Positions 2,805 through 30,891 of a stretch of 32,000 nucleotides of DNA are shown here, piece by piece. The stretch spans positions 1,890,489-1,922,488 of the forward strand of contig NZ_CP152407.1 of assembly GCF_038958875.1 (NCBI RefSeq), in the 5' to 3' direction. The notes beneath the pieces were generated by a model that saw only the letters and a program-made list of their open reading frames with translations, searched no databases and had not been told where the DNA came from. A program made the position numbers and the translations under genes. Source of the DNA: Acidovorax sp. FHTAMBA (lineage in GTDB: Bacteria > Pseudomonadota > Gammaproteobacteria > Burkholderiales > Burkholderiaceae_C). Numbering within the stretch: position 1 is the first letter of the stretch; every line of letters starts with the position of its first letter.

Positions 2805-2870
2805 TTTCCCCACCCCCCCGCCGATGCGTATGCGGCCCTTTCATGGGCCGCGGGGCATCGCTCGGCCTGT

Positions 2871-2893
2871 CGCATCTGCGTATGCGTTTTTTT
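2871..2893 (+). terminator. Candidate intrinsic terminator after the methyltransferase gene
   Basis: CGCAT (2871-2875) / ATGCG (2882-2886) form a 5-bp stem with a 6-nt loop, followed directly by T7 (2887-2893). A second hairpin GCGGCCC(2832-2838)/GGGCCGC(2845-2851) lies just upstream. The stem is short, hence moderate confidence. Confidence 0.45.
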
Positions 2894-2918
2894 CTACCGT
2901 CAACCCAAGGAAACTGCC

Positions 2919-3491
2919 ATGTCTTTCCCCTTCCGCCTCTCCCGGTTCGTCCGTTTCTCCAGTCCGCTGCGCCCGGGCATGGCGCTCATCGCCATCACCA
3001 CGCTGGCCTTGGGCGCCTGTGGTGGTGGAGGCGGTGATTCCGACCCCCCGGATGACGGCGGCGGCAAAGAGCCGCCTTCGGCGTCCATCAACGTGCTGGA
3101 AGGCGACTGGGTGCAGAAAGGGTGTGTCAAGGCGGGCGCGCAGTCGTTCAAGAAGATCCTGCGTGCGCGCATCACGGCCCCAAACACGCTCGACTATTAC
3201 GAAGGGGTGCTGACGTTTGGCGGAAATGAATGTGCAGGCCCGTCGCAAGTGGCCGGGCCGACCAAGCTCGGAGTGGTGACCTTTGCCCGCTCGGAGGCCA
3301 ACCAGGCGCTGGCGGCGCACTGGGGCGAGCTGCGCACCGTCACTGGCACCCGCTTTGGCGCCATCTGGACGCTGCGCCCCACCAACCTGCTGTGCCTGCT
3401 GGGCGACGGGATTCCCACCAGCCAGCCATCGCTTTCATCGGTGGCGCCCAGTCTGGCCACCATCCCGGCAGACAACTGCTTCACCCGATGA
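2919..3491 (+). CDS. Hypothetical lipoprotein
   Basis: ORF 2919..3491 (190 aa). The N-terminus MSFPFRLSRFVRFSSPLRPGMALIAITTLALGAC has a lipobox (LGA-C) followed by a Gly/Asp/Pro-rich linker. No family recognised. Confidence 0.7.
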   Translation: MSFPFRLSRFVRFSSPLRPGMALIAITTLALGACGGGGGDSDPPDDGGGKEPPSASINVLEGDWVQKGCVKAGAQSFKKILRARITAPNTLDYYEGVLTFGGNECAGPSQVAGPTKLGVVTFARSEANQALAAHWGELRTVTGTRFGAIWTLRPTNLLCLLGDGIPTSQPSLSSVAPSLATIPADNCFTR

Positions 3492-3523
3492 AAAACGCCC
3501 CACCCTTCGGAGCAAACCACGCC

Positions 3524-3946
3524 ATGCCTTTCATGAAAACTTCAATGCCCGCCCGGCTCGCCGCCATCATCACCACGGTGCTGATCGTCACCGGATGTGC
3601 GTCCACCCTCGACCAGGAGGGCCTGGAGCAGCGCACCGCGCAGGCCATCGGCCGGACCACCGGCCAGTTCACCATCACCGACCGCCAGGAGGAAACCGGC
3701 GGCCGCATCAACTACACCGCCACCACCCGCGACGGCGCAAGCTACCGGTGCTATCTGTACGGCGCCACCGGCTTTCAGAAAGCCATGAGCTTTGGGCAAA
3801 CACCCCATTCCGACGCCATCTGCACCGCCATGGTGGGCAGGCCGGGCAACGGTGGCGCCCAGGCCCCGGCAGCAGCCGCCCAACCGCAGGGGCGAGGTGC
3901 AGCCAAGGAATGCAATGCTCTGCTGCGCACGGCAGGCCGCTGCTAA
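3524..3946 (+). CDS. Hypothetical small lipoprotein
   Basis: In-frame ATG at 3524 (alternative 3533) inside track ORF 3230..3946. MPFMKTSMPARLAAIITTVLIVTGCAST gives a signal peptide plus lipobox (VTG-C). The upstream part of the track ORF overlaps the previous gene and looks non-coding. Confidence 0.65.
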   Translation: MPFMKTSMPARLAAIITTVLIVTGCASTLDQEGLEQRTAQAIGRTTGQFTITDRQEETGGRINYTATTRDGASYRCYLYGATGFQKAMSFGQTPHSDAICTAMVGRPGNGGAQAPAAAAQPQGRGAAKECNALLRTAGRC

Positions 3947-6554: not shown

Positions 6555-7619
6555 TTATGCGACCTGCAGTGCCGGATAGTCTGTATAGCCCTTGGCGCCA
6601 CCTGTGTAGAACGTGTTGGAGTCAGGCGCGTTCAGCGGTGCCTTGGCTCTGATGCGTGCGGCCAGGTCCGGATTAGCCAGGAAGGCGGTGCCAAAGGCCA
6701 CAGCGTCAAGCTTACCTTCGGCAATGGCTGCCTCTGCCTCATCAGCGCTGTAACCCATATTGCCCACCAACACACCCTTGAACTTTTCACGCGCTACGGG
6801 CATGACATCGGCCTTCTGCACGCCGAAGAAATCGGCGCGCATCACGTGCAGGTAGGCCAGCTTGAAGGCATTGAGCCTATCGGCCAGGAAGCCGATGAGG
6901 GCCAGGGGGTCGCTGTCCTTCATGCTGTTGAAGCTGTTGAGGGGCGACAGGCGCAGGCCCACACGTTCGGAACCGATCGCCTGGGTCACGGCAGTGAGTA
7001 CCTCGAACAGCAAACGTGCACGGTTTTCCAGCGACCCGCCGTAGGCATCGGTACGCTGGTTGGGCGTGTCGCGCAGAAACTGGTCAATCAGGTAGCCGTT
7101 GGCGCCGTGTACTTCAACACCATCAAAGCCGGCTGCAATGGCGTTGCGTGCGCCTTGAGCAAATGCAGCCACGATGCCGGGAATCTCTTCGACGGTCAGG
7201 GGGTGGGGCACCGCGTGCGGCACCTTGCCTTGGGGCGTGTGGATCTCACCCTCAATGGCGGTGGCGCTGCTGGAGACAATGGGGGCGCCATCGGCAGCGC
7301 CAGGGTAGGCTGCGCGGCCAGCGTGCCAGATCTGCATGAAGATGCGTCCGCCCTTGGCGTGCACCGCGTCGGTCACCTGTCTCCAGGCTGCAATCTGCGC
7401 GTCGTTGTAGATGCCAGGCTCATTGACGAAGGCTGATGTACCGGGCGCCACCATAGTGCATTCGGAAATCAGCAGGCCACCGGTGGCACGCTGGCTGTAG
7501 TACTCGGCCATCAGCGCGTTGGGCATGTGGCCAGCGTCGGCACGGGCGCGTGTCAGTGGTGCCAGAAGGATGCGGTTGGGCAGAGTGACAGAACCTACTT
7601 GAAGTGGATTGAATAGCAT
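6555..7619 (-). CDS. nemA: Old Yellow Enzyme family alkene reductase (N-ethylmaleimide reductase-like)
   Basis: ORF 6555..7619 (354 aa). It looks colinear with E. coli NemA as I remember it: PLxVG..TLPNRI.LAPLTR, MAEYYSQRA, QIWHAGR, GFDGVEVHGANGYLIDQFL, RTDAYGGSLENRARL, DAVAFG..FLANPDL, YTDYP. Confidence 0.9.
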   Translation of the reverse strand: MLFNPLQVGSVTLPNRILLAPLTRARADAGHMPNALMAEYYSQRATGGLLISECTMVAPGTSAFVNEPGIYNDAQIAAWRQVTDAVHAKGGRIFMQIWHAGRAAYPGAADGAPIVSSSATAIEGEIHTPQGKVPHAVPHPLTVEEIPGIVAAFAQGARNAIAAGFDGVEVHGANGYLIDQFLRDTPNQRTDAYGGSLENRARLLFEVLTAVTQAIGSERVGLRLSPLNSFNSMKDSDPLALIGFLADRLNAFKLAYLHVMRADFFGVQKADVMPVAREKFKGVLVGNMGYSADEAEAAIAEGKLDAVAFGTAFLANPDLAARIRAKAPLNAPDSNTFYTGGAKGYTDYPALQVA

Positions 7620-7835
7620 GCGAATGAAAATCCAGGTTACTGGTTACTGAACGGAAGGCAGTGGTAAAGGTAACAGTTTCCCAATACTCAGACATTCGAA
7701 AGGTCACTGAAGACGGCTTTGGCACGGCTGGTGCTTTTGCACCCAACGCACGATGTAGTGGACACGGGTTGGGAAGGATTTGCTACCGACAGTTTCGCGG
7801 CGGTCTGCAGCCGTACATGCACCAAACGCCTTTGG

Positions 7836-8798
7836 TCATCCACCGCGTCGCAACTCCCTGACCCCCCGGCCCAGCTTGCGGCGCAACAGGGTCCGCAGCG
7901 TCACCCCATCCGAGTACCCGACCTGTGCGGCGACCTGGTCGACGCTGGCGTTGCCTGTGCGCAAGAGATGGACGGCATGCTCGACGCGCAAGTCCTGGAA
8001 ATACGACAGTGGTGTCTTGCCCAAAACGCTTTGCAGCCGCCGCGCCAAGGTGCGCTCGCTTGTGCCCGCGGCGCTGGCCGCCTCGGCCAGCGAGAAACCT
8101 TGCGCGAGCCGACGTCTGGCCCAGCACTCGAAGCGCTCTACCATCGGGTCGGCATGCGCAAGGTGGTCGGGAATCACGAACTCGGCTTGCGAACTGCGTG
8201 TCTCGACCAGCAGATAGCGTGCCACCAGGGCCGCCAGCGCCGGACTGCGCCCTCGGATGATGCGCAAGGCCAAGTCGACGTGGGCCAAAGCGGCACCCGC
8301 GGTGGTGAAGCGTGTCGAGTTCACGATCATGCGTGACTCGTCCAGCGTGACGCTCGGATAGCGCTGCCGAAACATCGGCCCCAGCCACCATGACGTCGTC
8401 GCACGATGCCCATCAAGCAGACCACTCTCTGCAAGCAAGAAACTACCGGAGCAAGCGGCACCAAGGTGCGCGCCAGCGGTGGACCACTGCTGTAGAGCCG
8501 CGACCGCATCGGGCACATCGGGGCGTGTGAGCCGAGCCGAGAGCGTGTCAGGCATCTTGTCGCCAAAAGCGGGCACGAGCACGACGTCTGGTTCGGGCAC
8601 ACCACGCGCAGTGACCACGGGCACCGTCAAGCCTTGCGCTGTTCGGATGCGACGCCGCACACCCACCAGCGTGAGCTCTATGCGAGAGGGGGCCTGTGGC
8701 AGCGAGCCCGCCATCGCATTGGCCAAGCCCACTGTGTCAGTGAGCGCCGCAAGCCCCAGATCAAACACGCCATCACAAATAAGGAGGTGGAGTTTCAT
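7836..8798 (-). CDS. GlxA-family (DJ-1/PfpI domain + AraC HTH) transcriptional regulator
   Basis: ORF 7836..8849. I prefer the internal ATG at 8798 (MKLHLLICDGVFDLGLAAL), a typical DJ-1-type N-terminus. The C-terminal AraC HTH includes SLAEAASAAGTSERTLARR and VAAQVGYSDGVTL. The alternative start at 8849 is not excluded. Confidence 0.85.
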   Translation of the reverse strand: MKLHLLICDGVFDLGLAALTDTVGLANAMAGSLPQAPSRIELTLVGVRRRIRTAQGLTVPVVTARGVPEPDVVLVPAFGDKMPDTLSARLTRPDVPDAVAALQQWSTAGAHLGAACSGSFLLAESGLLDGHRATTSWWLGPMFRQRYPSVTLDESRMIVNSTRFTTAGAALAHVDLALRIIRGRSPALAALVARYLLVETRSSQAEFVIPDHLAHADPMVERFECWARRRLAQGFSLAEAASAAGTSERTLARRLQSVLGKTPLSYFQDLRVEHAVHLLRTGNASVDQVAAQVGYSDGVTLRTLLRRKLGRGVRELRRGG

Positions 8799-8915
8799 GG
8801 CAACAATGATACCAATGTTGTCATTATTGCCACTGGAGATGTCTGTCATGAGAACTTAGACTGCAGTCTCGTCGATCCCTTCAACCACTTTTCCATTTAC
8901 CCAAAGGAATACAGC

Positions 8916-9218
8916 ATGACCAAGCTCGCCCTGTTTGTTCGCCTCGAAGCTAAACCCGGCCAGGAGGCTGCGCTTGCCGAGTTCCTGGCCAGCGCACTGC
9001 CGCTCGCCAACGCCGAGTCCGGCACCACTGCCTGGTTCGCATTGAAGTTTGGCCCTTCGACCTTCGGTGTGTTCGATGCCTTCGCCGATGAGGCAGGTCG
9101 CCAGGCACATCTGAACGGCCAGATCGCCGCGGCCTTGATGGCCAACGCCGCGACTTTGCTCAGTTCTCCGCCCAACATCGAGAAGGTAGAACTGCTTGCA
9201 GCCAAACTGCCTGCATGA
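8916..9218 (+). CDS. Small ABM-domain (antibiotic biosynthesis monooxygenase-like) protein
   Basis: ATG at 8916 is preceded by AAGGAA (8905-8910), within track ORF 8634..9218. The 100-aa product MTKLALFVRLEAKPGQEAALAEFL...WFALKFGPSTFGVFDAF fits the ferredoxin-like ABM pattern. It is divergent from the GlxA-type regulator. Confidence 0.75.
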   Translation: MTKLALFVRLEAKPGQEAALAEFLASALPLANAESGTTAWFALKFGPSTFGVFDAFADEAGRQAHLNGQIAAALMANAATLLSSPPNIEKVELLAAKLPA

Positions 9219-9557
9219 CAACCCGGCCTTGACCCCATCAGGTCACGCTGCAGGATGGGCGTCACACGGCCCTGCGCGGCGCTGCCCCTCGATTGGCCGG
9301 TGGGGATCAAGGCATGTGCCCAGGCTGCTCGTGGCGAATGACTCAGCCCGGCGTTCATAGCCGCTAACAAAACCATGGCACCGTCAAACACCTGATCGGC
9401 GTTTGACGCTGCATGGGGCGAAACAAGAACAATGACGTCAGCGCCGCGCTGTTCAAAAAAATCGCACCGCCGTTGCCGGTAGTCACACCCTCGGCCCAGG
9501 GCGGTCGACCGCGGGTGCCGGACCCCAGCGCTTTTGGTCTTCGGCGCACTGAGCGAG

Positions 9558-18347: not shown

Positions 18348-19697
18348 TTAGAGTGCGGTTCCCGCGCTGCAAAGCGACGCCACCGCGTGGGCCACGGCCG
18401 TGCCGCTCAGCACCGCGCCCTCCAGCGTGGCGGGGTAGGGGCCTTGCGTGTAGTCGCCGCAGGCCCACAGGCGCGGGGCCAGGGCGCAGGCAGGGCGCTG
18501 CAGGGCGGGGGTGCAGGCGAAGGTGGCGCGCTTTTCCACCACGGTCTGCACGGGCCGCAGCCCGGCCAGGCCCAGCTGGCGGGCGGCCTGGTGCAGCACG
18601 CCCGCTTCGAGCGTGTCGCGCTCGCCATGGGCATCGCTCACCACAAACGCCAGCAGCCCGGCGGGGCCGCCCAGCTGGCCCCGGTCAAACACAAACTGCG
18701 CGGGCTGCCCCGGGCCCGGCCGCAGCGCCAGCATCGGCTGCGGCAACACGGCGGGGGCGCCCGGTGCGGCCTGGGCGTACACCGTGCCGATGGCGGTAAA
18801 GCGCAGCGCCTCGGCCGTGGTGGCCCAGGCGTCGAGGGTGCGCGCTTCGGGCGCGGGCAGGCTGGCCTGGGCGGCGCGGGCCAGGCGCGCCGCTTCGGTG
18901 CTGGAGGTGGCCAGCACCACGGCGTCAAACAGCTCGCCATCCACCCGCCAGCCTTGCGCAGTGCGCGCCAGGGCTTGCACGCGGCGCCCGGTGTGCACGC
19001 GTGCGCCGCGGGCCTGCAACCATTGCGCAGCAGTTTCGGGGAAAAGCGTGCCCAGGTCGGTGCGCGGCAGCAGCAGGTTGGAGCCACCCCGGCCGCTGAA
19101 CAGGCTGTCGCGCAGCACGCGCAAAAACACCTGGCCGCACGCCTCCTGCGAGGGCGTGTTCAGCGCCGATACGCACAGCGGGTCAATGAATTCGGCCATG
19201 AGCCGCGGGGGCAGCTTGACGCACAGCTGCTGCACCGTGGTGTCCGGCGCGCAGCGAAAGCCGCGCACACGCCACAGCGCGGCGGTGCGCAGCAGGGCCA
19301 GCTTGTCACCCGGCGGCCAGCCCCGCGCACGGGCAATGCCCAGCAGCGCATCCCAGGGCGGGGGCAGATCGGGCAGGCGCAGGCCCGTGCCGTCGGGGAA
19401 GACCAGGGCCAGCGGCAGGCGCAGCAGCGCGCTATCCACATCCACGCCCACCTGGCGCATGAGGCGCAGGCTTTCCGCATAGGCACCGATGAGGATGTGC
19501 TGGCCGTTGTCCAGCACCAGCGGTTCGCCCTGCACGCCGTGGCCGCTGAAGGCCCGGGCCCGGCCCCCGGTGGCGCGCGCAGTCTCGAACACCGTGGGCA
19601 TGATGCCGGCCTGCGCCAGGCCCACGGCCGCCGCCATGCCGGCCCAGCCTGCACCGATCACCGCCACGTTCATCGAGGGGACGCCTTGGGTCTGCAC
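18348..19697 (-). CDS. hpnE: Hydroxysqualene dehydroxylase (FAD-dependent amine-oxidase/phytoene-desaturase fold)
   Basis: ORF 18348..19697 (GTG start; alternative ATG at 19673 giving MNVAVIGAGWAGMAAA, the dinucleotide-binding motif). About 440 aa, and it lies 4 nt downstream of the hpnD-type gene. Confidence 0.8.
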   Translation of the reverse strand: MQTQGVPSMNVAVIGAGWAGMAAAVGLAQAGIMPTVFETARATGGRARAFSGHGVQGEPLVLDNGQHILIGAYAESLRLMRQVGVDVDSALLRLPLALVFPDGTGLRLPDLPPPWDALLGIARARGWPPGDKLALLRTAALWRVRGFRCAPDTTVQQLCVKLPPRLMAEFIDPLCVSALNTPSQEACGQVFLRVLRDSLFSGRGGSNLLLPRTDLGTLFPETAAQWLQARGARVHTGRRVQALARTAQGWRVDGELFDAVVLATSSTEAARLARAAQASLPAPEARTLDAWATTAEALRFTAIGTVYAQAAPGAPAVLPQPMLALRPGPGQPAQFVFDRGQLGGPAGLLAFVVSDAHGERDTLEAGVLHQAARQLGLAGLRPVQTVVEKRATFACTPALQRPACALAPRLWACGDYTQGPYPATLEGAVLSGTAVAHAVASLCSAGTAL

Positions 19698-19701
19698 GCC
19701 G

Positions 19702-20559
19702 CTACATCCGGCCCAGCGCCTGAACCTTCCACGCCAGCCAGAACTTGCGCAGCGGCGTGAGGCGGATGCGCTGGTGCAGCACCTGGAAGCTCTCGTGCTC
19801 GATCTCGCGCAGCAGCGTGCGGTAGATGTTGGCCATCATCAGGCCGGGCTTTTGCGCGCGGCGGTCGGCATCCGGCAGCAGGGCAAAGGCCTCGTCGTAC
19901 AGCCGGTGCGCGCGCTCGGCCTGAAACCGCATCAGCGCGGTGAAGCGGTCGGAATACGTGCGCTTCAAAATCTCGTGCGCCTTCACGTCAAACTGCTGCA
20001 GCTCGCTCACCGGCAGGTAAATGCGGCCCAGCATGGCGTCTTCGCCCACGTCGCGGATGATGTTGGTGAGCTGGAACGCCAGGCCCAGCGTGTGGGCGTA
20101 TTCGGTGGTGCGCGGCTCGGTCTGGCCAAAGATGCGCGCCGCCACCTCGCCCACCACACCCGCCACCAGGTGGCAGTAGCCCTTGAGCCCCGCAAAGTCG
20201 AGGTAACGGGTCTGCTCCAGGTCCATGTGGCAGCCGTCAATGACGGCCTGCAGGTGGCGCTGCTCGATACCGAATTCCGCCGTGTGCGGCATCAGCGCCA
20301 GCATCACCGGGTGGGTGGGCTGCCCCGCAAAGGCCTTGGCCACCTCGGCCTGCCACCACGCGAGCTTGGTGCTCGCCACGCCGGGGTCGGTCACTTCATC
20401 CACCACATCGTCCACCTCGCGGCAAAACGCATAAAACGCCGTGATGGCCGCACGGCGCTGCGTGGGCAGAAACAGGAAGGCGTAATAGAAGCTGCTGCCC
20501 GAGGCGGCGGCCTTTTGCTGTACGTACTGCTGCGGTGTCATGGGGCGCGATTGTCCCAT
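19702..20559 (-). CDS. hpnD: Presqualene diphosphate synthase (squalene/phytoene synthase family)
   Basis: ORF 19702..20559 (alternative ATG 20541). QQKAAASGSSFYYAFLFLP and YAFCREVDDVVDE (first Asp-rich motif) match HpnD-type sequences as I remember them. The second Asp-rich region is NIIRDVGED. Confidence 0.85.
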   Translation of the reverse strand: MGQSRPMTPQQYVQQKAAASGSSFYYAFLFLPTQRRAAITAFYAFCREVDDVVDEVTDPGVASTKLAWWQAEVAKAFAGQPTHPVMLALMPHTAEFGIEQRHLQAVIDGCHMDLEQTRYLDFAGLKGYCHLVAGVVGEVAARIFGQTEPRTTEYAHTLGLAFQLTNIIRDVGEDAMLGRIYLPVSELQQFDVKAHEILKRTYSDRFTALMRFQAERAHRLYDEAFALLPDADRRAQKPGLMMANIYRTLLREIEHESFQVLHQRIRLTPLRKFWLAWKVQALGRM

Positions 20560-20763: not shown

Positions 20764-21876
20764 TCAGGCTATTGTCAGCCGTTCCCGGGCCAACCTTGTT
20801 CCCTCTGCGAGCGCCTGCAGCTTGCGCCACGCTACATCCCGTCCCATCGGCGCCAGCCCGCAATTCGTGCATGGGAATAGGCGCTCCTTGGGCACGAATT
20901 CCAGCGCCCGACCGATGGTGTCGGCCACCTCCTCTGGGGTTTCCACCACGTCGCTGGCCACATCGATCACGCCCACCATCACGTCCTTGCCGGCCAGCAG
21001 CTTCATGAGATCGGGGGGCACGTGGGAGTGGATGCATTCCAGGCTCACTTGGTCGATGCTGCTTTTAGCCAGCGCAGGGAACACCGTCTCGTACTGGCGC
21101 CATTCCTCGCCCAGCGTGCTTTTCCAGTCGGTGTTGGCCTTGATGCCGTAGCCGTAGCAGATGTGCACTGCCGTCGTGCAGGTGAGGCCTTGTGCTGCAC
21201 GCTCGAGCGCCTTCACACCCCAGTCGGCGGCATCCTTCATGTAGACGTTGAAGGCGGGTTCGTCAAATTGAATGATGTCAACACCGTCGGCCTGCAGCGC
21301 GAGGGCCTCCTGGTTGAGCAGTTCGGCAAACGCGAAAGCCATCTTGACCTTGTCGCCGTAGAAACGGTCCGCCACGGTGTCGACGATGGTCATCGGTCCG
21401 GGCAGGGTGAACTTCAGCTTCTTCCTCGTATGCGCGCGCGCCAGCTGTGCTTCGAAGGCATGCACGCGGCCTTTGAGGCGCAACGCGGAGACGACCTGCG
21501 GCACCATCGCGTCGTAGCGGTTGTCGCGGATGCCCATCTTCACCTTGTGCTCGAAATCGATGCCATCGACCTGTTCGAGGAAGCCGTGCACGAAGTGCTG
21601 CCGCGATTGCTCGCCGTCGCCCACGATGTCCAGACCCGCGTCTTCCTGCGCCTTGATCCACAGCAAGGTGGCGTCGGCCTTCGCTTGGCGCAGTGCATCG
21701 CCTTCGGCCATCCATTGCGGCCAGAGTTTGTTGGTTTCCGCCAGCCAAGCCGGCTTCGGCAGGCTCCCGGCAACAGAGGATTCAAAGAGCTGCGCGACAC
21801 CGTTTGAACGCGGATGGCTCGACGCAGGGAAGACCGAGCTGGAGGGGAGCTGCGTGGCAGGCAAAGAATTCTTCAT
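20764..21876 (-). CDS. mesD: Short 'core-MetE' cobalamin-independent methionine synthase homolog (MesD-type)
   Basis: ORF 20764..21876 (370 aa). It covers only the C-terminal MetE catalytic barrel. The Zn-ligand contexts are conserved relative to E. coli MetE as I remember it: VHICYG (H-x-C), VSLECIHS (Glu) and TNCGLAP (Cys); GVIDVASD parallels GVYDIHSP. It is adjacent to a DUF1852 gene. Confidence 0.85.
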   Translation of the reverse strand: MKNSLPATQLPSSSVFPASSHPRSNGVAQLFESSVAGSLPKPAWLAETNKLWPQWMAEGDALRQAKADATLLWIKAQEDAGLDIVGDGEQSRQHFVHGFLEQVDGIDFEHKVKMGIRDNRYDAMVPQVVSALRLKGRVHAFEAQLARAHTRKKLKFTLPGPMTIVDTVADRFYGDKVKMAFAFAELLNQEALALQADGVDIIQFDEPAFNVYMKDAADWGVKALERAAQGLTCTTAVHICYGYGIKANTDWKSTLGEEWRQYETVFPALAKSSIDQVSLECIHSHVPPDLMKLLAGKDVMVGVIDVASDVVETPEEVADTIGRALEFVPKERLFPCTNCGLAPMGRDVAWRKLQALAEGTRLARERLTIA

Positions 21877-21904: not shown

Positions 21905-22888
21905 TCAGTGCGCGAAATCAGCAGCCCATTCCTCGAGAACGTTCTTGTACGGCTTGATGAAATTTTCCTCCGTGAACTTGCCTTGTTTCACTGCCAGCTG
22001 GCCCCGTTCCTCTCGGTCGTAGACGATGCGGGTCAATGAGTAGTCCAAGTTTCTAAGGCTGGGTTGAAAGAAACTTCCTGCTGCGGAATTGGCGTTGTAG
22101 ATCTCGGGCCGATAGATTTTCTGAAACGTCTCCATGGTGCTGATGGTGCCGATGAGCTCGAGGTCGGTGTAGTCCCCCAGCAGATCGCCGACAAAGTAGA
22201 AAGCCAACGGCGCGACGCTGTCTGGCGGCATAAAGAAGCGAACCCGCATACCCATCTTCTCGAAGTACCGGTCGGTCGGGGAAAGCTCGTTCTGCCGGTA
22301 TTCGGCGCCCAGGACAGGATGCCGATTGCCAGACTGGTGGTAGGTCTTGCTGCTTGAGGCGCTGATGCAGATCACCGGCGGTTTGGCGAACCATTTTTTG
22401 TAGGTATCCGAGCCCAGGAAGTGCTTGAAAAGCTTCCCATGCAGGTCGCCGAAATCAGTGGGAGTACCGAACTCGGAGCTGTCGATGTTGTGCGCCGGAA
22501 GCACGACGCTGAAGTCGTAGTCGCGGAGGTAGGACGAAAAATTGTTCCCGGCAATTCCGTCAATGCGTCTGCCGGTTTGCTTGTCAACGATGTTCGGTTT
22601 CAGTATTTCAATCAGCGGGAACACGTCACTGCCGCTCCCGGCGCCCATGTTCATCTCAACGGAGATGATTTCAAGCTCGACGGCATAGCGATCTCCCGTA
22701 GGGTTGTCCCAATGCGCCAAGCTGTTGAAACGGTTGTCGATCATCTTCAGGGTGTTGCGCAAGTTCTCCTGGCGGCTGTTCCCGCGGGCCAGGTTGGCGA
22801 AGTTGGTTGTGATGCGCGTGCTGTCCGACGGCTGGTAGTTTTCATCGAACCGGATGCTCTTGATGCTGAAGGTGAAGTGTTTGCTCAT
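21905..22888 (-). CDS. mesX: DUF1852-family protein (MesX-type partner of MesD)
   Basis: ORF 21905..22888 (327 aa). MSKHFTFSIKSIRFDENYQPSDSTRITTNFANLARG... matches what I recall of DUF1852. It lies 28 nt upstream of the core-MetE gene on the same strand. The family assignment is from memory and needs an HMM check. Confidence 0.75.
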   Translation of the reverse strand: MSKHFTFSIKSIRFDENYQPSDSTRITTNFANLARGNSRQENLRNTLKMIDNRFNSLAHWDNPTGDRYAVELEIISVEMNMGAGSGSDVFPLIEILKPNIVDKQTGRRIDGIAGNNFSSYLRDYDFSVVLPAHNIDSSEFGTPTDFGDLHGKLFKHFLGSDTYKKWFAKPPVICISASSSKTYHQSGNRHPVLGAEYRQNELSPTDRYFEKMGMRVRFFMPPDSVAPLAFYFVGDLLGDYTDLELIGTISTMETFQKIYRPEIYNANSAAGSFFQPSLRNLDYSLTRIVYDREERGQLAVKQGKFTEENFIKPYKNVLEEWAADFAH

Positions 22889-22932: not shown

Positions 22933-23514
22933 TCAGGTCGCAACCACATCCTCAGCGTGGACCGATCGTGCAAGTTTTGCCAACCCGAGAAGGGGCAAAG
23001 CCCGTTGGACTGCGAGCTGGGCTCTCTGGATCAAAGCCACGTTCTGCAGCCGGTAGTCCGAGAAATCTTGGTCGGTCGCGTAAACACCCAACGGCAACGT
23101 GCGCGCTTGAAAAAAGCTGAACAGCGGCCGCAACTGGTGGTCGATCACCAAGGCATGGCGCTCGCTGCCGCCGGTGGCAGCCAGCAAGACCGGCTTGTCG
23201 ATCAGGGCGTCCTGGTGAATGAAGTCGAAGAAGTGCTTGAACAGTCCCGTGTAGGAGCCACGGTAGACCGGTGTGGCCACCACCAGGACGTCAGCTTGCT
23301 CGACCGCGGCAAGTTCGCGCTCCACCACGTCGGGCAACTGGGAGCGCCAGACCGCGCCCGCAAAGTGCGGTGCGAGCTGGCCCAGCTCGACCAAGCGTTG
23401 TTCGCACGGAATTGCGTCGGCGATCAGATCCAGCAGATGCTCCGAAAGGGCCACGGCTTTGGAGGGGCGTTGAAGTCCGCCGGAAACTGCTACTGCGCGA
23501 AGTGGACGTGTCAT
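22933..23514 (-). CDS. NAD(P)H-dependent FMN reductase (SsuE/MsuE-like)
   Basis: In-frame ATG at 23514 within ORF 22933..23556. MTRPLRAVAVSGGLQRPSKA, ADVLVVATPVYRGSYTGLFKHFFD and LAATGGSERHAL are typical of the SsuE/MsuE flavin reductase family. It lies 44 nt upstream of the DUF1852 gene on the same strand. Confidence 0.85.
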   Translation of the reverse strand: MTRPLRAVAVSGGLQRPSKAVALSEHLLDLIADAIPCEQRLVELGQLAPHFAGAVWRSQLPDVVERELAAVEQADVLVVATPVYRGSYTGLFKHFFDFIHQDALIDKPVLLAATGGSERHALVIDHQLRPLFSFFQARTLPLGVYATDQDFSDYRLQNVALIQRAQLAVQRALPLLGLAKLARSVHAEDVVAT

Positions 23515-23605
23515 TTTGGTGTGGCGATCAAGGTTTCTCAAACGTCCGGCAATCACGGAAAGGTTGAATCGTAGAGTTGACGAACCGTGAAGTAAAATGG
23601 TGTTA

Positions 23606-23631
23606 ATTCACGCATCCATGAATCTCACTCA
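23606..23631. promoter_or_regulatory. Candidate MetR/LysR operator
   Basis: ATTCA(23606-23610)-N8-TGAAT(23619-23623) is an inverted repeat overlapping TGAAtctcaCTCA (23619-23631). That second element is one mismatch from the TGAA-N5-TTCA MetR consensus. It sits in the 123-nt divergent spacer, 7-32 nt upstream of the regulator ATG. Confidence 0.35.
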
Positions 23632-23637
23632 TTTGCC

Positions 23638-24555
23638 ATGCTGGAGCGCGCTCATCTTTCCATCGTCCAAGAAGTAGACAAGCAAGGCTCACTTACCGCT
23701 GCCGCAGAGGTGCTGCACCTGACGCAGTCGGCGCTGAGCCACTCGATCCGCAAGCTGGAAGCCCAGATGGGCACCGAAATCTGGCAACGCGAAGGGCGCA
23801 GCCTGCGGCTGACGCAGGCGGGGCAGTACCTGCTGGCGGTGGCCAACCGGGTGCTCCCGCAGCTGGATCTGGCCGAAGAACGCTTGCGCCAGTTTGCGCA
23901 GGGCGAGCGCGGGTCGCTGCGTATCGGCATGGAATGCCACCCCTGCTACCAATGGCTGCTGAAGGTGGTGTCGCCCTACCTGGCGAGCTGGCCCGACGTG
24001 GACGTCGACGTGAAGCAGAAATTCCAGTTCGGCGGCATTGGCGCGCTCTTCGGCTACGAGATAGACCTGCTGGTCACCCCCGACCCGCTCTACAAGCCCG
24101 GTCTGCGCTACGAACCCGTGTTCGACTACGAGCAGGTGCTCGTGGTGCCGCGCGGCCATCGCCTGGCCAACGTGCCTTACGTGAAGCCCGCACAGCTGAC
24201 GCAGGAGGTGCTGGTGACGTACCCGGTTGCCACCGACCGGCTGGACATCTACAACATGTTTCTGATGCCCGCCGGCGTGACGCCCAGGCGCCACAAGTCG
24301 ATCGAAACCACGGACATCATGTTGCAGATGGTCGCGAGCGACCGCGCGGTGGCTGCACTGCCACGCTGGCTGGTCGAGGAGTACGCGCAGAAGATGGACA
24401 TCGTTCCTGTGCGGCTGGGTCCGCGCGGCATCGCCAAGCAGATCTTCCTGGGCGCGCGGGAAGCGGACACCGACATCGACTACCTGAAGTCCTTTGTCGA
24501 GCTCGCACGGCAATCAGGCGGCCTTGTCGACAAGGGGCAGGCCCCGGCCCTGTGA
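23638..24555 (+). CDS. metR: LysR-family regulator, MetR-like
   Basis: ORF 23638..24555 (305 aa). The N-terminal LSIVQEVDKQGSLTAAAEVLHLTQSALSHSIRKLEAQMGTEIWQREGRSLRLTQAG parallels the E. coli MetR HTH (..GSLAAAA..LHQTQSALSHQF..LE..LG). It is divergent from the methionine-synthase operon. Confidence 0.75.
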   Translation: MLERAHLSIVQEVDKQGSLTAAAEVLHLTQSALSHSIRKLEAQMGTEIWQREGRSLRLTQAGQYLLAVANRVLPQLDLAEERLRQFAQGERGSLRIGMECHPCYQWLLKVVSPYLASWPDVDVDVKQKFQFGGIGALFGYEIDLLVTPDPLYKPGLRYEPVFDYEQVLVVPRGHRLANVPYVKPAQLTQEVLVTYPVATDRLDIYNMFLMPAGVTPRRHKSIETTDIMLQMVASDRAVAALPRWLVEEYAQKMDIVPVRLGPRGIAKQIFLGAREADTDIDYLKSFVELARQSGGLVDKGQAPAL

Positions 24556-24595: not shown

Positions 24596-25456
24596 TCACG
24601 TGTAGCGCTTCTCCAGCGCGTCCCACTCGGGCTTGTTGACCAGGCGTTGGCGCTCGGCAAAGGTCGCAACCAGTCCGCTGGATTCCTGCACTTCCTTCAC
24701 GTCGCGCAGCACGGTCAGTGCCTTCTGCATGCCGGCCACCGCACCCTGTAGCGCGGCATTGGCATACAGCACGATGCCATAGCCCAGTTCACCCAGGTCC
24801 GTGGCATTGAAGATAGGCGTCTTGCCGCCGATCACCATGTTCATTAGTTGCGGCTTGACCAGACGCCGGGGCAGCGCGCGAATCTCATCGGGCGTGGTCA
24901 CGGCCTCAACGAAGAGGATGTCCGCACCGGCCTCGGCGAATTTCTGCGCCCGTTCGACAGCGGCTTCGAACCCGTGCGTGGCGGCCGCGTCGGTGCGAGC
25001 CATGATCAGGAGATCAGGATCTTGGCGCGCATCGACGGCTGCCTTGATCTTGCTGACGGCCTCTTCTGTGGAGATCACTTCCTTGCCCGAGAAATGGCCG
25101 CAGCGCTTCGGCGCCACTTGGTCCTCGAACTGGATGCAGTCGGCGCCGGCACGTTCGAGCGTGCGGACGGTGTGCCGCACGTTCAGTGCATTGCCGAAGC
25201 CGGTGTCGGCATCGACGATCAGCGGCACGCTGACCGCGTCGCGGATGCGCGCTGTGTGATCGGCGATGTCCGATAGGCCCATGAAGCCCTGATCAGGCAT
25301 GCCGAACCACATGTTGGTGACACCGGCGCCGGTGATGTAGATCGCCTTGAATCCCAGGTCTTCGACGACCTTTGCAGACAGCGCGTTGAATGCGCCGGGA
25401 ACGATCAGGCCGCGGCGGGCCTCGACGAGTGACTTGAGCTGCTTGCGGGTGGACAT
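24596..25456 (-). CDS. prpB: 2-methylisocitrate lyase
   Basis: In-frame ATG at 25456 within ORF 24596..25555. It shows MSTRKQLKSLVEARRGLIVPGAFNALSAKVVEDLGFKAIYITGAG, DADTGFG and the catalytic loop QVAPKRCGHFSGKEV. It is 286 aa and sits in prp context. Confidence 0.9.
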   Translation of the reverse strand: MSTRKQLKSLVEARRGLIVPGAFNALSAKVVEDLGFKAIYITGAGVTNMWFGMPDQGFMGLSDIADHTARIRDAVSVPLIVDADTGFGNALNVRHTVRTLERAGADCIQFEDQVAPKRCGHFSGKEVISTEEAVSKIKAAVDARQDPDLLIMARTDAAATHGFEAAVERAQKFAEAGADILFVEAVTTPDEIRALPRRLVKPQLMNMVIGGKTPIFNATDLGELGYGIVLYANAALQGAVAGMQKALTVLRDVKEVQESSGLVATFAERQRLVNKPEWDALEKRYT

Positions 25457-25470
25457 TCGAGTAATTCCGA

Positions 25471-26664
25471 TCAGAAACTGTCGCCGGGAACACGTACCCA
25501 GCCTTCCATCAATACGCGGGCGCTGCGGCTCATCAATGCCTTGGTGACCACCCATTCGCCGTCGACCTTGCTCGCCTCGGCGCCCACGCGAAGCGTTCCC
25601 GAGGGATGGCCGAAGCGCACGGCCTGGCGCTCGCCGCCGCCGGCCGCGAGGTTTACTAGCGTGCCGGGTATGGCGGCAGCTGTGCCGATGGCCACGGCCG
25701 CTGTGCCCATCATGGCGTGGTGCAGCTTGCCCATCGACAGCGCGCGCACCAGTAGGTCGATTTCCGCGGCGGCCACTGCCTTGCCGCTGGACGCCGTGTA
25801 GTCCTTGGGCGGCGAAACGAAGGCCACCTTGGGCGTGTGCTGGCGCCTGCCAGCTTCATCGACGTGATTGATCAAGCCCATCTTCACCGCGCCGTGCGCG
25901 CGGATGGTCTCGAACATGGCCATGGCCTTGGTGTCGCTGTTGATGGCGTCCTGCAGTTCGGTGCCGGTGTAAGCGATGTCGGCGGCGTTGACGAAGATGG
26001 TCGGAATGCCCGCGTTGATCAGCGTGGCGCGCAACGTGCCCACGCCCGGCACGTCGAGGTCTTCGACCACCTTGCCCGTCGGGAACATCGCGCCACCGCC
26101 TTCACCGTCGCCTTCGTCGGCCGGCTCGATGAACTCCAGTGGCACTTCGGCCGCTGGGAATGTCACGCCGTCGAGTTCGAAGGTGCCGGTTTCCTGCACC
26201 TGGCCAGCGGTGATGGGCACGTGCGCGACGATGGTCTTGCTGATGTTGGCCTGCCAGATGCGCACGGTGCACGTGCCGTTTTCCGGAATGCGCGCCGGAT
26301 CGACGAGGCCCTGCGCAATCGCGAACGGCCCGACCGCCGCCGACAGGTTGCCGCAGTTGCCCGACCAGTCGACGAACGCGCTGTCGATGGAGACCTGGCC
26401 GAAGAGGTAGTCGACATCGTGGTCCGGCCGCGTGGAGCGCGACAGGATGACAGCCTTGGATGTGGACGAGGTGGCCGCGCCCATGCCATCGATCTGCTTG
26501 GCGTAGGGATCGGGGCTGCCGATGACGCGCAGCAGCAGCGTGTCGCGCGCGGGACCGGGCTGGCGCGCCGCCGCGGGCAGGTCCTGCAGGCGAAAGAACA
26601 CGCCCTTGCTGGTGCCGCCACGCATGTAGACGGCGGGAATCTTGATCTGGGGAGTGGATGCCAT
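25471..26664 (-). CDS. prpF: 2-methylaconitate cis-trans isomerase (AcnD accessory protein)
   Basis: In-frame ATG at 26664 within the artefactually long ORF 25471..27627. MASTPQIKIPAVYMRGGTSKGVFF is the canonical PrpF N-terminus. It is 397 aa and lies directly downstream of acnD. Confidence 0.9.
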   Translation of the reverse strand: MASTPQIKIPAVYMRGGTSKGVFFRLQDLPAAARQPGPARDTLLLRVIGSPDPYAKQIDGMGAATSSTSKAVILSRSTRPDHDVDYLFGQVSIDSAFVDWSGNCGNLSAAVGPFAIAQGLVDPARIPENGTCTVRIWQANISKTIVAHVPITAGQVQETGTFELDGVTFPAAEVPLEFIEPADEGDGEGGGAMFPTGKVVEDLDVPGVGTLRATLINAGIPTIFVNAADIAYTGTELQDAINSDTKAMAMFETIRAHGAVKMGLINHVDEAGRRQHTPKVAFVSPPKDYTASSGKAVAAAEIDLLVRALSMGKLHHAMMGTAAVAIGTAAAIPGTLVNLAAGGGERQAVRFGHPSGTLRVGAEASKVDGEWVVTKALMSRSARVLMEGWVRVPGDSF

Positions 26665-26687
26665 TGCGATGAGGAGGGTGGTTGTCT

Positions 26688-29327
26688 TCAAGCGGTCGAC
26701 TTGTTGGCGGCCAGGAAGTCTTGCGCAAAACGCTGCAGCACGCCGCCGGCTTCGTAGATCGACACTTCTTCCGCAGTGTCCAGGCGGCAGGTCACCGGCA
26801 CCTGCAAGGTCTCGCCACTGCGGCGGTGAACGACCAACGTCAGGTCGGCGCCCGGCGCGGGTTTGCCGGCGACGTCGAAGGTCTCGGTGCCGTCCAGGAC
26901 CAGGGTGAGGCGCGTGGTACCGGGCTTGAACTCCAGCGGCAGCACGCCCATGCCCAGAAGGTTGGTTCGGTGGATGCGTTCGAAGCCTTCGGCCACCACG
27001 GTTTCCACACCCGCCAGGCGCACGCCTTTGGCAGCCCAGTCGCGAGACGAGCCCTGGCCGTAGTCGGCGCCGGCCACGATGATCAACGGCTGCCTGCGGT
27101 TCAAGTAGGTTTCGATGGCTTCCCACATGCGCACGATTTGCCCCTCGGGTTCGATGCGCGCGAAGGAACCCTTCTTCTGCACGCCGTCGACCACCGCCAT
27201 TTCGTTGACGAGTTGCGGGTTGGCGAAGGTGGCGCGCATGGCCGTCAGGTGATCGCCTCGATGCGTGGCGTAGGAGTTGAAGTCCTCTTCCGGCAGGCCC
27301 ATCTTGTGAAGGTACTCGCCGGCGGCGCTGTCCATGAGGATGGCGTTGGACGGTGAGAGATGGTCCGTCGTGATGTTGTCGGGCAGGATGGCTAGCGGCC
27401 GCATGGCGCGCAGCGTGCGCGGCACGGCCGCCAGTGCTCCCACGCCTTCGCTGTCCCAGTAAGGCGGGCGGCGAATGTAGGTCGACTGCGGCCGCCAGTC
27501 GTACTGCGGACTCACTTTTTCTCCGCTGTCGGCATGAATCGCGAACATGGGTTCGTAGACCTTGCGGAACATCTCGGGCCGCACCGACGCCGCGACGATG
27601 GCGTCGATCTCCGAGTCGCTCGGCCACAGGTCGCGCAAGCGGATTTCCTTGCCGTCAACGACGTCCAGCACGTCGCGCTCGATGTCGAAGCGCATGGTGC
27701 CCGCGATGGCGTAGGCCACCACCAGCGGCGGCGAGGCCAGGAAGGCCTGCTTCGCATAGGGGTGGATGCGGCCGTCGAAGTTGCGGTTGCCAGAGAGCAC
27801 CGCCGTGGCGTAGAGGTCGCGCTCGATGATCTCGTTCTGGATCTTCGGATCCAGCGCGCCGGACATCCCGTTGCAGGTGGTGCACGCGAAGCCTACGATG
27901 CCAAAGCCGAGCTGCTCCAGGTCGTGCAGCAGGTCGGCGTCGCGCAGGTACAGCTCCACCGCCTTGGATCCCGGTGCCAGCGACGACTTGACCCACGGCT
28001 TGCGCTTGAGCCCCAGTCGGTTCGCGTTGCGCGCGAGCAGCGCCGCGGCAATCACGTTGCGGGGGTTCGAGGTGTTGGTGCAGGAGGTGATGGCCGCGAT
28101 GATCACAGCGCCATCGGGCATCAGGCCTGCGGCCTCCTGCTGCCGGACATCGGCCAGGCCCACCGCGATGTTGCGCTCCGCCAGTTGCGATGTCGGCAGC
28201 CGGCGGTGCGGATTGGAAGGGCCGGCCATGCTGCGCACCACGCTCGACAGGTCGAAGCTCAGCACGCGCTCGTAGACCGCCGTCTTCAGCGCATCGCCCC
28301 AGAAGCCGGCCGTTTTCGCATAGGTCTCGACCAACGCGACCTGCGTGTCTTCACGGCCTGTGAGCCGCAGGTAGGTGAGCGTCTGCTCGTCGATGTAGAA
28401 GAGCGCGGCGGTGGCGCCGTACTCTGGACACATGTTGGAGATGGTGGCACGGTCCCCGACCGTCAGGCCCGGCGCGCCTTCGCCGAAGAACTCCAGGTAC
28501 GCACCGACCACTTTTTCCTTGCGCAGGAACTCGGTGAGCGACAGCACGATGTCGGTGGCGGTGATGCCCGGCTGGCGCCGGCCAGTGAGCTCCACGCCGA
28601 TGATGTCGGGTAGCCGCATCCACGAGGCGCGGCCCAGCATCACGTTCTCGGCCTCCAGGCCGCCGACGCCCACCGCGATCACCCCCAGCGCATCGACGTG
28701 GGGCGTATGACTGTCGGTGCCCACGCAGGTGTCGGGGAAGGCCAGGCCGTCCTGCACGTAGACCACCGGCGACATCTTCTCCAGATTGATCTGATGCATG
28801 ATCCCGTTCCCCGCCGGGATCACCTCCATGTTGGCGAAGGCGCGTTTCGTCCACTCGATGAAGTGAAAGCGGTCCTCGTTGCGCCGGTCTTCGATGGCCC
28901 GGTTCTTCTCGAAGGCCTGCGGATCGAACCCGCCGCACTCCACGGCCAGAGAATGGTCGACGATGAGTTGCACCGGCACCACCGGGTTCACCTGCGCCGG
29001 GTCGCCGCCTTCGGCCGCGATGGCGTCGCGCAGGCCGGCCAGGTCCACCAGCGCCGTCTGGCCCAGGATGTCGTGGCACACCACGCGCACGGGAAACCAG
29101 GGAAAGTCGCGATCACGCCGGCGTTCGATGAGTTGCAGCAGGCAGTCGTTCAGGATGGCCGGCTCGCAGCGCCGGACCAGGTTCTCGGCATGCACGCGTG
29201 CGGTATACGGCAGTCGCGCCCAGGCACCGGCCTGCAGCGCGTCGACGGCGGCGCGGGCGTCGATGTAGTCCAGTGCGGTGCCGGACAGCGGTTTGCGAAA
29301 TTCTTCGTGGGGCATGAGCATGTGCAT
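26688..29327 (-). CDS. acnD: Fe/S-dependent 2-methylcitrate dehydratase (aconitase family)
   Basis: In-frame ATG at 29327 (alternatives 29321 and 29315) within ORF 26688..29564. FRKPLSGTALDYIDARAAV...LPYTARVHAENLVRRCEP is the AcnD-type N-terminus. Aconitase Cys-ligand contexts are ITSCTNTSNP and GFACTTCNG. It is 879 aa. Confidence 0.9.
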   Translation of the reverse strand: MHMLMPHEEFRKPLSGTALDYIDARAAVDALQAGAWARLPYTARVHAENLVRRCEPAILNDCLLQLIERRRDRDFPWFPVRVVCHDILGQTALVDLAGLRDAIAAEGGDPAQVNPVVPVQLIVDHSLAVECGGFDPQAFEKNRAIEDRRNEDRFHFIEWTKRAFANMEVIPAGNGIMHQINLEKMSPVVYVQDGLAFPDTCVGTDSHTPHVDALGVIAVGVGGLEAENVMLGRASWMRLPDIIGVELTGRRQPGITATDIVLSLTEFLRKEKVVGAYLEFFGEGAPGLTVGDRATISNMCPEYGATAALFYIDEQTLTYLRLTGREDTQVALVETYAKTAGFWGDALKTAVYERVLSFDLSSVVRSMAGPSNPHRRLPTSQLAERNIAVGLADVRQQEAAGLMPDGAVIIAAITSCTNTSNPRNVIAAALLARNANRLGLKRKPWVKSSLAPGSKAVELYLRDADLLHDLEQLGFGIVGFACTTCNGMSGALDPKIQNEIIERDLYATAVLSGNRNFDGRIHPYAKQAFLASPPLVVAYAIAGTMRFDIERDVLDVVDGKEIRLRDLWPSDSEIDAIVAASVRPEMFRKVYEPMFAIHADSGEKVSPQYDWRPQSTYIRRPPYWDSEGVGALAAVPRTLRAMRPLAILPDNITTDHLSPSNAILMDSAAGEYLHKMGLPEEDFNSYATHRGDHLTAMRATFANPQLVNEMAVVDGVQKKGSFARIEPEGQIVRMWEAIETYLNRRQPLIIVAGADYGQGSSRDWAAKGVRLAGVETVVAEGFERIHRTNLLGMGVLPLEFKPGTTRLTLVLDGTETFDVAGKPAPGADLTLVVHRRSGETLQVPVTCRLDTAEEVSIYEAGGVLQRFAQDFLAANKSTA

Positions 29328-29335
29328 TGGATTGC

Positions 29336-30499
29336 TCAGTGGCGTTCTTCGATCGGCAGGAACTTCAAATCCTCGGGGCCGGTGTAGTTGGCACTGGGGC
29401 GAATGATCTTGTTGTCCACGCGCTGTTCGATCACATGCGCGGCCCAACCGCTGGTGCGCGCGATCACGAACAGCGGTGTGAACATGGCCGTCGGCACGCC
29501 CATCATGTGATAGCTCACCGCGCTGAACCAGTCCAGGTTCGGGAACATCTTCTTGACTTCCCACATGACCGATTCCAGCCGCTCGGCGATGTCGTACATC
29601 TTGGTGGTGCCCGCACCGTCGGACAGGCGCTTTGCCACGCCCTTGATCACCACGTTGCGTGGATCGCTCACCGTATAAACCGGGTGGCCGAAGCCGATCA
29701 CGACCTCCTTCGCCTCGACGCGGCGGCGGATGTCGACCTCGGCCTCGGCCGGGTTGTCATAGCGTTTCTGGATCTCGAAGGCCACCTCGTTCGCACCGCC
29801 ATGCTTGGGGCCGCGCAGTGCACCGATGGCGCCGGCGATCGCCGAGTGCATGTCGCTGCCGGTGCCGGCGATCACACGCGCGGCGAAGGTCGATGCGTTG
29901 AATTCGTGTTCGGCATAGAGGTTCAGCGAGGTGTGCATGGCGCGCTCCCACTCGGCACTGGGCTTCTTGCCGTGCAGCAGATGCAGGAAATGCGCGCCGA
30001 TGGAGTCATCGTCGGTCTCCAGCTCGATGCGCTTGCCCAGCGAAGACCAGTGATACCAATACAGAAGCATGGAGCCCAGTGATGCCATCAACCGATCGGC
30101 AATGTCGCGCGCGCCGGGCGTGCCGTGGTCGTCCTTCTCGGGCAAGGTGCAGCCCAGAGCAGAGACGCCGGTGCGCATCACGTCCATGGGGTGGGCGTTG
30201 GCGGGAATCTGCTCCAGCGCCCGCCTCACGCTGGCCGGCACACCGCGCATGGCCTTCAGCTTGGCCTTGTAGGCGGCGAGTTCGGCGCGCGTCGGCAGCT
30301 TGCCGTGCACCAGCAAGTGGGCGATTTCCTCGAACTCGCAGACCTCGGCGACGTCCAGAATGTCGTACCCACGGTAGTGCAGGTCGTTGCCAGTGCGGCC
30401 CACGGTGCACAGCGCGGTATTGCCGGCGGTGACGCCGGAGAGAGCGACGGACTTCTTGGGTTTGAAGGCAGGTGCAGTGGTTTCGGTCGTGGTGGTCAT
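29336..30499 (-). CDS. prpC: 2-methylcitrate synthase
   Basis: In-frame ATG at 30499 within ORF 29336..30670. It is 387 aa with citrate-synthase blocks: [35 protein letters not shown] and GFGHPVY. Confidence 0.92.
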
Positions 30500-30891
30500 G
30501 CTGTTTCCTTGTCCAGATAAGAGCGATTGATGGGGGCAGGGCGACCGGTGGCATCGACTGCCACCATCTCGAACACGCCCTTGAGGACTTCTTCCGCCGG
30601 GATGCCCGGCTTGTCGGCGATGCCGCTCACACAAACGGTCATCGAGCTGCGGCCGATACGGCTGACCCATCCGCGAAGGGTGAGCTGGTAGCCCACCGCC
30701 ACCGGCGATAGAAAGTCCACGCTGGTCACGCTTGCCATCACGACCTCTTGCTGCGCCAGTCCTCGTGCTGCCAGAAAAGCCGCCTTGGCCATCAACTGCA
30801 GCCCTTGCCCGGCGAACAGCGTGTCGTGGTGATTGGCATGCACCGGCAGCACCAGTTCGCGCAACTCGGCTGTTCCAGTGGGTGTTGTCAT
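30496..30891 (-). CDS. Hotdog-fold acyl-CoA thioesterase (YciA/BFIT-like)
   Basis: In-frame ATG at 30891 within ORF 30496..31368. The 131-aa product has [28 protein letters not shown], which fits the P..N..G.lFGG.lm..mD.aa pattern of acyl-CoA thioester hydrolases. Its stop overlaps the prpC start as ATGA (30496-30499). Confidence 0.7.

Follow-up and report, generated by a model that had tools for sequence, protein, structure and literature searches.

The gene at positions 21,905–22,888 of the Acidovorax sp. FHTAMBA DNA that was analyzed (a stretch of 32,000 nucleotides, here called the window) is an ordinary mesX ortholog in its usual genomic setting. It occupies the middle of a compact operon on the minus strand, in the order FMN reductase, mesX, mesD. 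The account of this locus that we consider probable, taken as a whole, has three parts: the gene is a mesX ortholog, its product works by a two-component flavin mechanism, and its AT-richness is compositional. The features concerned are as follows.

20,764–21,876, minus strand: mesD, core methionine synthase of 370 aa, MetE catalytic domain alone (PF01717, NF006589)
21,905–22,888, minus strand: mesX (DUF1852, PF08908), 327 aa from an ATG start (Pfam, conserved columns, AlphaFold2 model)
22,933–23,514, minus strand: MsuE-type NAD(P)H-dependent FMN reductase, at the head of the operon (PF03358, TIGR03566)
23,588–23,632, no strand: control region between regulator and operon (conserved boxes 1 and 2)
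23,638–24,555, plus strand: divergent MetR-like regulator of the LysR family (HTH_1 and LysR_substrate domains)

The mesX product matched PF08908 over profile positions 1–323 of 323 with a score of 597.6 bits (Pfam cut-off 25). This family is the former DUF1852, now carried in Pfam as "MesX, putative oxygenase". No second Pfam family was detected in the protein at E ≤ 10, and NCBIfam contains no model for MesX. The mesD gene begins 28 nt downstream of mesX. PF01717 is the sole Pfam domain of MesD, the folate-binding domain is absent, and NCBIfam NF006589 ("methionine synthase") matched above its threshold (583 bits, cut-off 392); motifs of the Zn-ligand type (VHICYG, SLECI, and PCTNCG) are readable in the translation. 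The FMN reductase was recognized by PF03358 (E = 2.6e-27) and by TIGR03566, FMN_reduc_MsuE (251 bits, cut-off 212.5). Its mechanical open reading frame runs on to a GTG at 23,556, but the ATG at 23,514 is the likely start; homologs begin MTRPLR or MTHPLR. Ten representatives that were long or otherwise odd showed no fusion of MesX to MesD or to a reductase. The possibility that MesX consists of two homologous halves created by internal duplication was rejected, as hhalign comparisons at three splits gave a probability of 0.1%.

MesD and MesX were named in work on A. baylyi and S. koreensis, where both are required for methionine synthesis without B12 (PMC7857596). The mesD/mesX pair complements E. 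coli ΔmetE and ΔmetF, aerobically only; metF is dispensable for methionine synthesis by MesD/MesX, and a flavin reductase often adjoins the two genes (PMC7857596). The requirement for MesX, the requirement for O2, and the independence from MetF and B12 have been shown by others through genetics. Price et al. (2021) predicted that MesX takes methyl groups from central metabolism by means of flavin and O2, and cautioned that the O2 requirement might be indirect, involving, for example, H2O2 or quinones (PMC7857596). Among aerobic bacteria that have the system, MesD/MesX is the sole methionine synthase in 22% (PMC7857596). In A. baumannii the DUF1852 gene is repressed ~300-fold by B12 (PMC12892962), and MesD-dependent strains are N2O-tolerant (PMC13059711). 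No biochemical or structural work on MesX turned up in the literature searched. Judged by orthology to the genetically characterized proteins, the identity of MesX at this locus and its physiological role are very probably as those studies describe.

The window locus has the same full-length Pfam family, the same gene pair, and an adjacent flavin reductase in common with A. baylyi ADP1 (ACIAD3524/ACIAD3523) and S. koreensis. Across 80 proteobacterial genomes MesX is 68–79% identical to the window copy; the Acinetobacter orthologs sampled (L056, L070) lie at ~71%, and the window copy has all of the family-conserved residues. The loci differ in their reductase, which in Acinetobacter is of the HpaC type (PF01613) and encoded downstream of mesD, whereas that of the window is of the MsuE type (PF03358) and encoded upstream. 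They also differ in MesD, the window protein being of a Comamonadaceae subtype that is just 53–58% identical to the MesD of most genomes. Identity to the window MesD was in fact bimodal, with values of 83–96% in 16 loci and 53–58% in the other 64. Where the genus is named, the 16 belong to Comamonadaceae or close Burkholderiales relatives. In the same loci the distribution was unimodal for MesX (68–79%), for the FMN reductase (74–87%), and for the operon-adjacent MetR-like regulator (78–84%), a pattern suggesting that the mesD subtype was exchanged in place.

An earlier note on this DNA, made from the sequence, had described the gene as visibly AT-richer than its surroundings and as atypical in its codon usage. 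The first description was accurate. Composition was referenced to 23 Pfam-supported genes, all from this one window, and mesX is the AT-richest of them, with a GC content of 0.552 versus 0.668 ± 0.035 (z = −3.35). GC1 is 0.505 (z = −4.8) and GC2 is 0.385 (z = −2.0). The claim about codon usage fails, because the codon statistics lie within the window distribution. GC3 is 0.768 (z = −0.95), inside the span of 0.71–0.92 covered by the rest, and a CAI-like index calculated relative to the other genes stands at 0.551 (z = −0.79), seventh of the 23. Karlin's codon distance B is 0.335 and ranks fifth of 23 when sampling noise is allowed for; the AraC-type regulator, FMN reductase, OYE reductase, and ApbE genes have higher values. 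The earlier note had itself named codon statistics within the genomic distribution as the outcome that would refute its claim, and the statistics place mesX inside the 23-gene distribution. The two codon strings quoted as examples are present (att GAA ATA CTG AAA and agc CTT AGA AAC TTG), and the list of supposedly rare codons held in part. CTT (5/24), GGA (3/21), and AGA (2/20) are nominally raised in mesX (uncorrected p = 0.003, 0.04, and 0.02, respectively) and no others are; the synonymous shares of AAT (19% vs 16%), GAT (27% vs 23%), and ATA (5% vs 3%) are the same as in other genes (p > 0.4).

Codon usage more atypical than that of mesX was seen elsewhere in the window, in the genes for an OYE-type flavin oxidoreductase and an AraC/DJ-1-type regulator (6,555–8,849), where GC dips to 0.60–0.62 and GC3 is 0.72–0.73. 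Raw B is 0.478 for the FMN reductase, 0.47 for the AraC gene (the second-largest value), and 0.36 for the OYE gene; the AraC gene has the largest B of the window once sampling noise is corrected.

The AT-richness of mesX is compositional and family-wide, and points neither to a foreign origin nor to any special choice of codons. It arises because the conserved protein is poor in Ala, Gly, Arg, and Pro and rich in Phe, Tyr, Asn, Ile, and Lys. The earlier remark that the protein is rich in N, K, F, Y, and I agrees with its FYMINK content of 32%, compared with 16% in the other window proteins (maximum 23%); Ala accounts for 5.8% versus 14.5%. The family was surveyed in 80 loci from one-per-species genomes whose hosts span 34–68% GC. 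The GC content of mesX was lower than that of its flanks in 77 of the 80 genomes (mean −0.078) and lower than that of mesD in 79, and across these hosts GC1 (~0.51) and GC2 (~0.37) are nearly constant. Regression on flank GC predicts a GC of 0.575 ± 0.043 and a GC3 of 0.813 ± 0.094 for the window gene, as against the observed 0.552 and 0.768; the window value falls within 0.5 SD of the family expectation.

Recent horizontal acquisition from a low-GC donor has in its favor that no gene of the window is lower in GC than mesX, that CTT, GGA, and AGA are nominally raised, and that the operon is plasmid-borne in one Comamonadaceae strain (L027). We nevertheless regard it as extremely unlikely. GC3, the CAI-like index, and Karlin's B are all in the window range, and other genes deviate more. 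The deficit sits in GC1 and GC2, the same GC offset recurs in 77 of 80 genomes, and the window value is no more than 0.5 SD from the family regression. Furthermore, the nearest copies of MesD, the reductase, and the regulator are those of Comamonadaceae, with MesD up to 96% identical.

Conservation was examined in 115 MesX sequences with identities down to 33%. In 54 columns conservation reaches 97% or more; 33 of these are polar or charged, and the window protein carries the consensus residue at all 54. Among the polar or charged positions are R25, T27, T28, N29, N32, R39, N55, E94, N116, S118, S119, R122, D123, D125, H150, S176, Y183, H190, Y197, S203, T205, Y208, Y231, Q256, Y259, R260, E262, Y264, Y290, D291, E294, R295, and Q302; M212 and M252 are conserved too. 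Exactly two histidines are conserved, H150 in all sequences and H190 in 114 of 115, together with six acidic residues: E94, D123, D125 (all but one sequence), E262, D291, and E294. With 54 conserved columns, 33 of them polar or charged, MesX is likely to be an enzyme rather than a scaffold, the pattern resembling that of an active site.

Recognizable cofactor motifs are absent from this conserved set, and no motif for flavin binding or O2 activation could be named. A GxGxxG/A Rossmann fingerprint does not occur in the 327 residues, and the protein has a single Cys (C174), in agreement with the earlier note, which had reported neither a Rossmann motif nor a Cys cluster. In two-component flavin systems the oxygenase half binds FMNH2 from free solution and lacks a Rossmann motif. 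Its absence from MesX is uninformative for that reason. The statement that there is no obvious 2-His-1-carboxylate signature was right about the canonical motif: neither HxD/E...H nor ExxH is found in MesX, and HxD/E...H is not among the conserved features. It needs qualifying, as H150, H190, and the six acidic residues are conserved family-wide. The sole HxD/E tripeptide, H59-W-D61, was considered as a facial-triad motif and ruled out, since H59 is not conserved beyond the close clade (0% in the distant clade).

A single-sequence AlphaFold model of MesX had a pLDDT of 33. When the 115-sequence alignment (33–91% identity) was used as input, the protein was confidently predicted to be a single-domain α/β structure (pLDDT 92, pTM 0.91). 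A Foldseek search of this model against 350,542 PDB chains returned no match at E ≤ 0.001 (best E 0.14, TM 0.08–0.17), and no structural match in the PDB to a cupin, DSBH, or ferritin-like fold. The viral structures of BFVD gave no match either (best E 0.09, TM ≤ 0.21), and neither the MesX sequence nor the family profile matched any PDB chain at E ≤ 10. Structure prediction and fold search thus upheld the view that MesX has no recognizable catalytic fold, by which we mean that it has no solved relative in the PDB and BFVD sets compared.

The gene neighborhood was more informative about chemistry. In all 80 loci mesD lies directly downstream of mesX. An MsuE-type PF03358 reductase gene precedes mesX in 36 of them, as it does in the window; in 27 others an HpaC-type PF01613 reductase, unrelated to the MsuE type, is encoded downstream of mesD. 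The two families were never found in the same locus, and 17 loci have no adjacent reductase of either family. The phylogenetic co-occurrence check proposed in the earlier note therefore gave 80/80 loci for DUF1852 with core-MetE and 63/80 for DUF1852 with a flavin reductase of one family or the other. Two-component flavin monooxygenases need only free reduced flavin, and the reductase is interchangeable. Displacement of one reductase by another fits a freely diffusing reduced flavin, and so does the fact that the system works in E. coli with no reductase of its own. The alternation of reductase families lends support to the published proposal in which MesX, using reduced flavin and O2, provides MesD with methyl groups.

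The likeness of this operon to SsuE/SsuD, MsuE/MsuD, and HpaC/HpaB lies in the encoding of a small NAD(P)H:flavin reductase together with a separate O2-dependent protein. Two-component flavin systems in general also resemble it in having an interchangeable reductase family and in working in a foreign host without their own reductase. MesX is unlike the known oxygenase components in that no luciferase-like TIM barrel, acyl-CoA-dehydrogenase-like fold, or Rossmann fold was detected (Pfam, Foldseek), and both its flavin binding and its reaction are putative.

In the mechanism that we favor, the FMN reductase-mesX-mesD operon would be expressed under the MetR-like regulator, and the reductase would use NAD(P)H to generate free FMNH2. 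MesX would be the oxygenase partner in a two-component flavin system, with a fold that has no solved relative, and would combine FMNH2, O2, and a common central metabolite to give an activated methyl donor that is either released or held by the protein. MesD would then present a zinc-activated homocysteine thiolate that accepts the methyl group to form methionine, with folate and B12 unneeded. What we infer is that MesX uses flavin, that it works as an oxygenase, and what kind of methyl donor it makes; the flavin-oxygenase step itself has, in our judgment, about an even chance of being correct. The suggestion in the earlier note that MesX would be a new type of flavin- or O2-utilizing enzyme is plausible, and is already the hypothesis of Price et al. 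(2021).

The same residues could serve a different chemistry. MesX might be a metal-dependent oxygenase or oxidase, for example a non-heme iron enzyme, with a noncanonical site made up of H150, H190, and conserved carboxylates, in which case the flavin reductase would merely feed electrons to the metal or keep it reduced. The conserved H150 and H190, with E94, D123, D125, E262, D291, and E294, are compatible with such a site, and so is the published O2 dependence (PMC7857596). In addition, the DUF1852 protein is less abundant in metal-starved A. baumannii and was grouped there with metalloproteins, with no metal assigned; this proteomics entry is, however, a bare abundance change (PMC12458113). 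The missing HxD/E...H and ExxH motifs and the lack of a match to a cupin, DSBH, or ferritin-like fold count against a metal site, and two interchangeable reductase families are a hallmark of two-component flavin systems. We consider the metal-dependent alternative unlikely and prefer the flavin mechanism.

Distant homologs of MesX, at 35–46% identity, keep the same conserved residues and form a clade whose genomic setting is quite different. In this orphan clade (L081–L087, L089–L091) no MesD, flavin reductase, or MetR-like gene was found nearby in nine of nine contexts, and no conserved neighbor gene was common to the nine, which are independent. Because these contexts have neither a reductase nor MesD, flavin dependence is not a universal genomic signal of the MesX family. 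Seventeen positions distinguish the MesD-linked and orphan clades. The most striking is residue 174, which is Cys in 99% of the MesD-linked clade and Ala in all 33 distant sequences. The orphan clade without MesD, the clade-specific Cys174, and the conserved, putative MetR-type operator described below are new in this analysis.

Both the residue pattern and the orphan clade bear on whether MesX is catalytic at all. It could instead be a methyl carrier, a scaffold, or an activating chaperone for MesD, with the O2 dependence coming from elsewhere in metabolism. The absence of a cofactor motif and of a known fold would suit such a role, as would the strict position of MesX beside MesD in the canonical clade (80/80 loci), and a Cys174 restricted to MesD-linked proteins suits the side-chain methyl carrier considered in PMC7857596. 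Yet a carrier would need far fewer than the 33 polar or charged positions conserved here, and the distant clade retains these residues where MesD is absent (9/9 contexts), which points to an autonomous activity. The MesD/MesX pair also suffices in E. coli, so the pair itself must create the methyl donor. A noncatalytic MesX is quite improbable in our estimate, lower in standing than the metal enzyme, and we retain the view that MesX is a reduced-flavin enzyme.

A bolder version of the flavin mechanism takes the clade difference into account. MesX would found a structurally new class of enzymes that use reduced flavin and O2 to make an activated methyl group out of central metabolism; the MesD-linked clade would relay that group through Cys174, and the orphan clade would serve another acceptor. 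This version is tentative, and we would give it somewhat less than an even chance. If it is true, there is a third route to the methyl group of methionine, one needing neither folate nor cobalamin, and the oxidative chemistry of the orphan clade (Ala174) is the same but directed to a different acceptor.

Comparison with other methionine synthases places the system more precisely. MetE shares with MesD the C-terminal catalytic domain (PF01717), the logic of zinc and homocysteine binding, and independence from B12. MesD differs from it in missing the folate-binding domain and in needing MesX and O2 instead (PMC7857596). MesA, MesB, and MesC are likewise core MetE domains that depend on a separate protein for the methyl group. 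Their partners are corrinoid proteins of anaerobes, whereas MesX has no corrinoid-binding features, occurs in aerobes, and requires O2 (PMC7857596).

The source of the methyl group used by MesD/MesX has been a standing question since 2021. Bacteria in which this system is the sole methionine synthase include the pathogens Acinetobacter and Stenotrophomonas, and it lets them grow without B12 and, according to recent work, under N2O. New C1 chemistry, and probably a new enzyme fold as well, would come to light once MesX is solved. Because the window copy is a textbook ortholog, it adds no special handle on the methyl source. What the analysis has gained is the closing of the codon-usage lead, the finding that no solved structure resembles the model, a short list of candidate residues, a genomic argument for flavin from reductase displacement, and the identification of the orphan clade. 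The mesX family is a worthwhile biochemical target, the chemistry of which was framed already by Price et al. (2021).

The regulator that adjoins the operon has MetR as its top NCBIfam match, at 215 bits, under the equivalog cut-off of 382. In 31 loci a copy that is 78–84% identical adjoins the gene for the FMN reductase in divergent orientation. The divergent region between regulator and operon is 120 nt long and contains two conserved boxes. Box 1, ATGA-N7-TCAT at 23,618–23,632, is exact in 29 of the 31 loci, which range from Comamonadaceae to Xanthomonadales, its arms being fixed and its spacer variable. Box 2 is TGAA-N15-TTCA at 23,588–23,610; its core, ACCATTTTAC, is near-identical from Comamonadaceae to Xanthomonadales. 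From this conservation we infer a putative operator, formed by boxes 1 and 2, to which the MetR-like regulator would bind. Consensus scans for promoters and terminators gave matches at the level of shuffled controls. No cobalamin riboswitch, tRNA, or other Rfam family scored above threshold anywhere in the window, and a riboswitch was set aside as the source of the B12 repression seen in Acinetobacter.

To the left of the mes operon are hpnD/hpnE and a P-type ATPase gene, and to the right is a methylcitrate-cycle cluster. The hpnD (presqualene diphosphate synthase, 392 bits) and hpnE (hydroxysqualene dehydroxylase, 320 bits) genes, at 18,348–20,559, lie directly downstream of mesD, with no hpnC between them and the operon. 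Open reading frames of 159–238 aa occur on both strands at 2,841–3,946 and 8,897–9,391; they have no Pfam match, and their coding status is putative. The cluster at 24,596–30,670 is of the AcnD/PrpF type and comprises a prpB-like lyase (279 bits, under the equivalog cut-off of 354), prpF, and one gene each of the aconitase and citrate-synthase families. The mechanical open reading frames of prpF and the aconitase gene run much too far at their 5′ ends.

A final observation concerns the wider set of loci. A gene cluster obtained by single linkage was initially taken for queH in 41 loci; direct search left ~14 genuine queH neighbors. The queH gene (PF02677) encodes a B12-independent epoxyqueuosine reductase. 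It is absent from the window and in ~14 of the 80 loci lies within ~3 kb of mesX-mesD, for example at 3,637–4,302 in L002, 5,149–5,799 in L028, and 8,961–9,626 in L029. Together, queH and mesX-mesD look like a small cluster of B12-sparing isozymes.
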